From: Escherichia coli
Lineage (GTDB): Bacteria; Pseudomonadota; Gammaproteobacteria; Enterobacterales; Enterobacteriaceae
Assembly: GCF_003334815.1 (NCBI RefSeq)
Contig: NZ_QOWO01000003.1
Direction: 5' to 3' (one strand)
Length of the DNA stretch: 64,000 nucleotides
Positions within the stretch are counted from its first letter, which is position 1; every line of letters begins with the position of its first letter. The notes beneath the pieces were generated by a model. The model saw nothing but the letters and a program-made list of their open reading frames with translations, did no database searches and was not told the origin of the DNA. Below are positions 945 through 1,489 of the stretch, in pieces. Both the position numbers and the translations under genes were made by a program.

Positions 945-945
945 A

Positions 946-975
946 GCGCCACAAGGGCGCTTTAGTTTGTTTTCC
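946..975. terminator. Bidirectional rho-independent terminator after soxR
   Basis: Hairpin AAAGCGCC-ACAA-GGGCGCTTT flanked by T-rich tracts on both strands, immediately 3' of the soxR stop. Confidence 0.6.
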
Positions 976-1489
976 GGTCTTTGTCTTTCTCTCTATCCCG
1001 CTGGTACACAGGAGGGTTTCCCCCGACGTCAACACACCTCATTCGAGCACGTGGTGGAGGTTCCGGTTGGTGTTGATGCTTTAATTGTATGTCACCGACG
1101 TTTCTTCGCCAGTGTAAAAGTATACTTTTTAACCGCAATATTTTTGTCATCTCAGACGATTTTTTATCGCAATCCTGAACGGTATACGGCTCGATAACGC
1201 TGCAATCTTGCGCACCGACGATAACGTTTGCGCATCAATTGCCTGGTTTTTCATCGTCAAGACAATAAAAGAGAAAAAAGCAGCAAACTTCGGTTGAAAA
1301 AGCCGCTATGATCGCCGGATAATCGTTTGCTTTTTTTACCACCCGTTTTGTATGCGCGGAGCTAAACGTTTGCTTTTTTGCGACGCAGCAAATTGTCGCA
1401 AACCTGGAGCAGGAAGATAACGTTTCGCTGGCAGGGGATTGTCCGCCACGCATCTTGACGAAAATTAAACTCTCAGGGGATGTTTTCTT

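Follow-up and report, generated by a model that had tools for sequence, protein, structure and literature searches.

The minus strand of the soxR-ghxP spacer in Escherichia coli carries the gene for the known small RNA SraL (RyjA)

Introduction

Does the spacer between soxR and ghxP in Escherichia coli encode a small RNA and, if so, on which strand, between which ends and with what likely function? The window examined here, a stretch of 64,000 nucleotides of E. coli DNA (contig NZ_QOWO01000003.1), carries soxS (71..394, minus strand), soxR, ghxP (1490..2839, plus strand) and yjcE (from 2990) within positions 1..3200, and 545 bp separate the soxR stop codon (944) from the ghxP start (1490). An earlier note made from the sequence alone had taken this spacer to be gene-free over roughly 500 bp, which agrees with the measured length, and had proposed that a minus-strand sRNA, possibly ryjA of K-12, occupies 945..1200 and ends at a hairpin at the soxR 3' end. 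SraL/RyjA is an RNA of about 140 nt that was first found in E. coli in 2001.

Results

Identity of the RNA

A scan of the whole window with Rfam found RF01408 (sraL) on the minus strand at 1077..937, a match that covers positions 1-142 of the 142 in the model and scores 153.3 bits (E 1.1e-34) against a gathering score of 39 bits. The chromosome of E. coli K-12 MG1655 (NC_000913.3) is base-for-base identical to the window over at least 111..2511, its coordinates being those of the window plus 4276989, and the ncRNA annotated there as ryjA (b4459; 4277926..4278066, minus strand) corresponds exactly to window 937..1077 on the minus strand. Sequence, coordinates, strand, the length of 141 nt and the neighbours (soxR convergent, ghxP upstream) all equal those of the annotated SraL/RyjA; there is no difference from the K-12 gene, and the window carries the reference allele itself. 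The RNA is thus an already known one and nothing about it is novel. A discrete SraL/RyjA transcript has been seen on Northern blots in both E. coli (PMC12956327, PMC5389530) and Salmonella (PMC3753932). Together with the full-length Rfam match and the K-12 annotation, these blots uphold the proposal of a minus-strand sRNA that ends at the soxR hairpin, and the comparison with K-12 places ryjA in this interval and on this strand. The interval given in the earlier note was right in location and wrong at both ends, as the transcript runs from 1077 to 937, whereas 1078..1200 consists of promoter and upstream DNA outside it, with the predicted sigma-S-type promoter region at about 1078..1130. We regard it as almost certain that 937..1077 is the gene for the trans-acting enterobacterial sRNA SraL (RyjA), with the mode of action through RpoS, tig and rho that is proposed below. 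The features of the locus are collected in Table 1.

Table 1. Features of the sraL locus in window coordinates; nt, nucleotide of SraL counted from A1077
Feature	Position	Strand	Basis
sraL / ryjA gene (141 nt; 5' end A1077, 3' end 937)	937..1077	-	Rfam RF01408; identity with ryjA b4459
soxR coding sequence (last 8 nt overlap the SraL 3' end)	480..944	+	ORF list and annotation
-10 hexamer TACAAT (-12..-7)	1084..1089	-	sequence; conservation in 51 unique upstream regions
TAAAGC after the -10 hexamer; its TAA is the sigma-S-typical motif	1083..1078	-	sequence
-35-like element CTGGCG (-35..-30), weak match to TTGACA, 17-bp spacer	1107..1112	-	conservation in homologs
A-tract at -53..-49, possibly an UP-like element	1126..1130	-	A in 65-88% of homologs
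5' domain: helix 1 (nt 1-7 with 44-50) enclosing single strand nt 11-22 and helix 2	1028..1077	-	compensatory changes in 4 of 7 helix 1 pairs
Loop nt 25-34 CACGUGCUCG, where the tig 5' UTR is predicted to pair	1044..1053	-	local duplex search against K-12 tig
Internal hairpin (nt 65-70 with 77-82)	996..1013	-	compensatory changes in 3 of 6 pairs; 98.3% of cells paired
A/G-rich single strand nt 81-104 GAUAGAGAGAAAGACAAAGACCGG, near-invariant	974..997	-	invariance at 18 of 24 positions over 48 unique homologs
Bidirectional intrinsic terminator hairpin, common to sraL (-) and soxR (+)	938..968	.	terminator scan; folds on both strands; homologs
U-rich SraL 3' tail UUUAGUUUU, partly inside the stem; reported poly(A) addition site	937..945	-	sequence; PMC5389530

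A predicted sigma-S-type promoter

The promoter predicted upstream of A1077 is of the sigma-S (RpoS) type, as judged by its -10 hexamer, the TAA that follows and a degenerate -35, the features by which Silva et al. 2013 (PMC3753932) described promoters of the RpoS type. We compared 51 unique upstream regions from other Enterobacteriaceae in a gap-free alignment on the start site. The A at -11, the A at -9 and the T at -7 are each present in 100% of them and the T at -12 in 90%, followed by T at -6 in 96% and A at -5 in 98%; further upstream, G is found at -32 in 100% and at -33 in 96%, and the -35-like element reads CTGGCA or CTGGCG in 30 of the 51 unique homologs. Where an RpoS promoter typically has C at -13 the window has A, and C stands at -14 in 78% of homologs. 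A scan for sigma-70 consensus promoters called none for sraL, the only hit being at 1294..1323 on the plus strand, on the ghxP side; the missing call fits the degenerate -35.

Published work in Salmonella bears directly on this promoter. SraL was about 500-fold lower in an rpoS mutant, direct RpoS dependence was shown by Northern blot, with an sraL promoter-lacZ fusion and by RpoS ChIP, in which the promoter was enriched more than 100-fold, and SraL builds up as cells enter stationary phase and when SPI-2 is induced by the growth conditions (PMC3753932). E. coli RyjA was detected by Northern blot as a transcript that starts with A (PMC12956327), in agreement with A1077.

The ghxP side of the spacer holds motifs of another kind. 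The motif A[AT]CGTTT[GC][CG] has five matches in the window, and four of them fall in a 412-bp stretch upstream of ghxP (1223, 1322, 1365 and 1419). These four (spacer 1218..1428) look like half-sites of the PurR operator (AACGTTTGC), a likeness that would suit a gene for a purine transporter. A search of the whole window for the 16-bp PurR operator gave a single hit with three mismatches (1218..1233), no better than expected by chance.

Structure and conservation of the RNA

Homologs were collected, one genome per species, with an exact pattern made of two conserved SraL stretches and a variable gap. This gave 53 loci in about 15 enterobacterial genera, with members in Escherichia, Salmonella, Citrobacter, Enterobacter, Klebsiella, Raoultella, Leclercia, Lelliottia, Cedecea, Atlantibacter, Trabulsiella, Pluralibacter, Pseudocitrobacter, Silvania, Huaxiibacter and Pseudenterobacter. 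These loci yield 48 unique sRNA sequences, whose alignment has a mean column identity of 83% and whose RNAalifold consensus has 35 pairs in six helices, with standard pairs in 98.6% of cells. Compensatory double changes occur in 8 of the 35 pairs against 3.9 +/- 1.0 in shuffled alignments (0 of 500 shuffles reach 8), and when the 3' partner was slid by 1-3 columns as a control pairing fell to just 35-56% of cells. The covarying pairs lie in helix 1 (four of seven), the internal hairpin (three of six) and the terminator (one of 12), whereas helices 2, 3 and 4 are invariant and give no evidence for or against pairing. As the complete RNA, folded as a single sequence, surpasses its shuffles only modestly (z -1.94; 7 of 200 as good), the case for this structure rests on the comparative data.

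Within the 5' domain, helix 1 encloses an invariant single strand, nt 11-22 (ACCGGAACCUCC), and helix 2 (nt 18-21 with 38-41). The search pattern itself prescribed nt 11-22 and 52-64, and the invariance of these two segments therefore carries no independent weight. The A/G-rich segment nt 81-104 lay outside the pattern and yet is invariant at 18 of 24 positions. This segment corresponds to the (ARN)x motif that has been reported for RyjA at nt 84-117 (PMC5575007) and is probably an Hfq (ARN)x site, a seed for target pairing, or both, to judge from its composition and conservation.

The terminator shared with soxR

The hairpin that ends SraL consists of a 5-nt loop on a 13-bp stem with six G-C pairs, one arm of which contains the soxR stop codon (942..944), the SraL 3' end being 8 nt inside the soxR coding sequence. 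The terminator scan reported it as a minus-strand intrinsic terminator (968..938). The minus-strand fold of 925..975 reaches -24.0 kcal/mol (z -6.6) and the plus-strand fold of 930..985 reaches -22.6 kcal/mol (z -4.6), with 0 of 200 shuffles as good in either case, and T-rich runs follow the stem both on the plus strand (TTTAGTTTGTTTT, 962..974) and on the minus strand (TTTAGTTTT, 945..937), as the earlier note had remarked. The strong folds together with the T-runs on both strands identify the hairpin as a bidirectional terminator. A Rho-independent terminator is kept at the SraL 3' end in 48 of 48 homologs, with 12 stem pairs retained in 99.8% of cells and one compensatory change from U-A to G-C.

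Read on the plus strand the hairpin terminates soxR, and this raises the question of whether it does anything else. One explanation would be that it serves soxR alone, that there is no independent minus-strand gene and that any minus-strand signal is read-through or noise, in line with the RefSeq PGAP records, which list only soxR under the match and leave the sRNA unannotated. We give this next to no probability, as it is at odds with the full-length covariance-model match, with the curated ncRNA annotation in NC_000913.3, with a promoter conserved at a fixed distance and with compensatory changes in helices far from the terminator, and it is refuted by the published Northern blots of a discrete transcript (PMC3753932, PMC12956327, PMC5389530). 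The hairpin is best read as the terminator of two convergent genes, soxR and sraL.

The overlapping reading frames

Two open reading frames overlap the sRNA gene in the window, one of 88 aa on the plus strand (931..1197) and one of 26 aa inside the sRNA (AUG at sRNA nt 36), and PGAP calls a hypothetical protein (WP_001325981.1) at the position of the longer one in strain CP53. If the interval coded for protein, its conservation would be expected to follow codons, whereas the pattern observed is that of a paired RNA. The ATG of the 26-aa frame is found at the homologous column in just 7 of 48 homologs, CTG being the commonest triplet there, and owing to indels the frame varies from 0 to 36 codons in length; the 88-aa antisense frame is broken by stops in 24 of the 48 and shifts between genera, so that the peptides are unrelated. 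With neither frame kept across the 48 homologs both coding interpretations were rejected, and we consider it very improbable that the interval codes for protein. The 88-aa hypothetical protein annotated in some PGAP records is probably a spurious gene call, going by the lack of a conserved frame, and 937..1077 is read here as an RNA gene throughout.

Distribution and the convergent soxR gene

Of 5426 complete E. coli genomes, 5421 carry the sRNA with its promoter (937..1135) at a coverage of at least 80%, and almost every copy has at least 95% identity. Across the homologs, soxR lies convergent (tail-to-tail) directly past the SraL 3' end in 52 of 53 loci, with ghxP upstream in most, and in several genera a gap of 10 to about 500 nt separates the sRNA 3' end from soxR.

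This arrangement raises the possibility that SraL, besides acting in trans, is a cis-antisense RNA on the 3' end of soxR mRNA and couples stationary-phase signalling to the stability or termination of that mRNA. Both transcripts contain the terminator region (8 nt or more of coding sequence and the hairpin of about 31 nt), the overlap or abutment recurs in those 52 loci over about 15 genera, the terminator stem is almost invariant, and SraL has been termed an antisense sRNA on the strand opposite soxR (PMC3753932). However, each of the two RNAs holds the complementary region in a very stable hairpin, the genera in which the sRNA ends 10 to about 500 nt from soxR imply that overlap is not required, the conserved synteny may simply reflect the shared terminator, and the SraL literature cited here reports no effect on soxR. 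A cis-antisense role is therefore distinctly unlikely in our view, and we continue with SraL as an RNA that acts in trans.

Several individual loci depart from the common arrangement. The sole one of the 53 to give no soxR match, over the roughly 1.6 kb examined downstream, is that of Citrobacter sedlakii NBRC 105722 (3032..4773, in the sRNA-sense orientation), where soxR may have been lost or displaced or an insertion may be present. SraL-soxR-ghxP loci were also found on a 2.9-kb contig of a metagenome-assembled genome labelled 'Bacillota bacterium', in which the sRNA, SoxR and GhxP are identical to those of the window, and in an assembly labelled 'Chryseobacterium sp. 18061'; enterobacterial contamination or mis-binning is the most likely origin of both. 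In the E. coli record NZ_CP066366.1 (AR Bank #0346) the match to a 1.2-kb soxR-sraL-ghxP query is split in two by an annotated IS1B transposase, and soxR is listed twice, which suggests an IS1 insertion that disrupts soxR.

Targets of SraL

The mechanistic literature on RpoS dependence, tig, rho and turnover is mostly from Salmonella, the E. coli data being the discrete transcript, its A start and its polyadenylation. In Salmonella, SraL represses the tig mRNA, which encodes trigger factor, as was proved by compensatory chromosomal mutations and gel shifts, and the 5' part of the sRNA pairs with tig in one stretch of 7 bp and one of 3 bp, immediately ahead of the Shine-Dalgarno sequence (PMC3753932). 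We searched the K-12 tig leader with SraL lacking its terminator, using windowed and segment-wise duplexes with shuffled controls. The best local duplex joins nt 25-34 to tig -29..-19 (CGAGCACUGUG) through 3+7 bp with one bulged U, at -16.4 kcal/mol. The duplex matches the published 3+7 bp geometry; as 8% of shuffled targets do as well, it is not significant on energy alone. Full-length RNAduplex runs of SraL against the tig and rho leaders were dropped, as they gave unrealistic 100-nt duplexes by ignoring intramolecular structure.

The alignment varies most where the tig-pairing loop lies. Klebsiella and Enterobacter are among those with another sequence at this place, the equivalent being AAGCUCG in Enterobacter and UUGCGCAAUAC in Klebsiella and Raoultella. 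Set against the invariant or near-invariant segments nt 11-22 and 81-104, this variability suggests from the alignment that tig regulation may be confined to some members of the family, and the role of the invariant segments may lie in Hfq binding or in other targets.

For rho, the one plausible candidate inside the K-12 leader pairs SraL 80-106 with rho -152..-118 (-18.8 kcal/mol). As some 10% of shuffles are as good, we treat this predicted pairing as a lead and not as a result. The strongest windowed matches (-312..-230) were discarded as apparently upstream of the rho transcription start, given a leader that we take to be about 255 nt long. In Salmonella, pairing of SraL with the rho leader keeps Rho from terminating this leader prematurely (Silva et al. 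2019, as related in PMC6582626, PMC12360218 and bioRxiv 2024.02.02.578684). We infer that the regulation of tig and rho is the same in E. coli K-12 as in Salmonella.

Poly(A) polymerase I, PNPase and the degradosome take part in the decay of SraL, and the RNA, which Hfq stabilises, is less stable when Hfq is absent (PMC3753932). Two features through which Hfq-dependent sRNAs may bind Hfq are present in SraL, namely a U-tail behind the terminator and the A/G-rich stretch with its (ARN)x motif. E. coli RyjA is polyadenylated, and the full-length form is up in a pcnB mutant with a log2 fold-change of 3.84 (PMC5389530). A Salmonella Hfq co-immunoprecipitation deep-sequencing table lists SraL with 0 reads in the co-IP and 0 in the control (PMC2515195), so direct binding of SraL by Hfq is not demonstrated by those data.

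Other RNA elements of the window

The Rfam scan also returned elements away from the soxR-ghxP spacer. The enterobacterial sRNA STnc630 (RF02052) is matched at full length at 54558..54723 on the plus strand (181.8 bits against a gathering score of 55), and an AUG within this match leads into what looks like an open frame. A SECIS_2 selenocysteine insertion element at 21799..21853 on the minus strand (87.1 bits against 70) implies a selenoprotein gene on that strand. Nine matches to naRNA4/CssrE (RF02564), which represent REP/BIME-type repeat units, lie at 8315..8385, 18921..19330, 46060..46140 (plus strand) and 48616..48892 (minus strand); four of them cluster within the 410 bp of 18921..19330, and three copies in 48616..48892 are exactly 100 bp apart.

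Discussion

We propose the following course of events at this locus. Transcription would start at A1077 from the sigma-S-type promoter (TACAAT, TAA and a degenerate -35), so that the RNA would accumulate in stationary phase and under stress, and would stop at the G+C-rich hairpin and its U-tract. The 141-nt RNA would fold into the 5' domain, two small hairpins, the long A/G-rich single strand and the terminator stem. It would then act by base pairing: the loop in its 5' part would pair just upstream of the tig Shine-Dalgarno sequence and lower the level of trigger factor, and pairing with the rho leader would block premature Rho-dependent termination and raise rho mRNA. Hfq would stabilise the RNA, while poly(A) polymerase I, PNPase and the degradosome would remove it.

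The most conserved single-stranded segment of SraL (nt 81-104) is not the published tig seed. One explanation for the variable tig loop beside a segment that is nearly invariant across about 15 genera is that the main conserved function of SraL is exercised through nt 81-104, on the rho leader or on targets still to be identified, possibly with a cis-antisense effect on soxR mRNA in addition. We give this proposal some credence, if rather little, and the sRNA with the tig and rho targets already published is the account that we prefer.

As SraL/RyjA already has a K-12 annotation, an Rfam family and the published targets tig and rho, the present analysis adds little to what is known of the RNA. 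Its use lies in fixing the exact ends and the strand of sraL in this window, and in showing that PGAP records omit the gene and that some of them place a spurious 88-aa protein on the opposite strand.

SraL invites comparison with three sets of known regulators. SdsR (RyeB) likewise has a sigma-S-dependent promoter, accumulates in stationary phase and represses mRNAs by base pairing in trans, and SraL has been named the second conserved RpoS-controlled sRNA after SdsR (PMC3753932); the two are, however, unrelated in sequence and locus, and their targets differ, being ompD for SdsR and tig and rho for SraL. A second likeness is one of architecture, as RyjA has been grouped with OxyS, MicM, MgrR and OhsC by an (ARN)x stretch between stem-loops (PMC5575007). 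Two stem-loops flank such a motif in OxyS as they do in RyjA, where nt 84-117 are nearly invariant in the homologs analysed here, although the members of this group are without sequence homology to RyjA and the binding of RyjA to the distal face of Hfq is putative. A third likeness is to DsrA, ArcZ and RprA, which pair in the long 5' UTR of rpoS and prevent premature Rho-dependent termination (PMC6582626), as SraL does on the rho leader, by rut occlusion or refolding as candidate mechanisms. Unlike these three, SraL has rho itself as its target, so that it feeds into Rho autoregulation.
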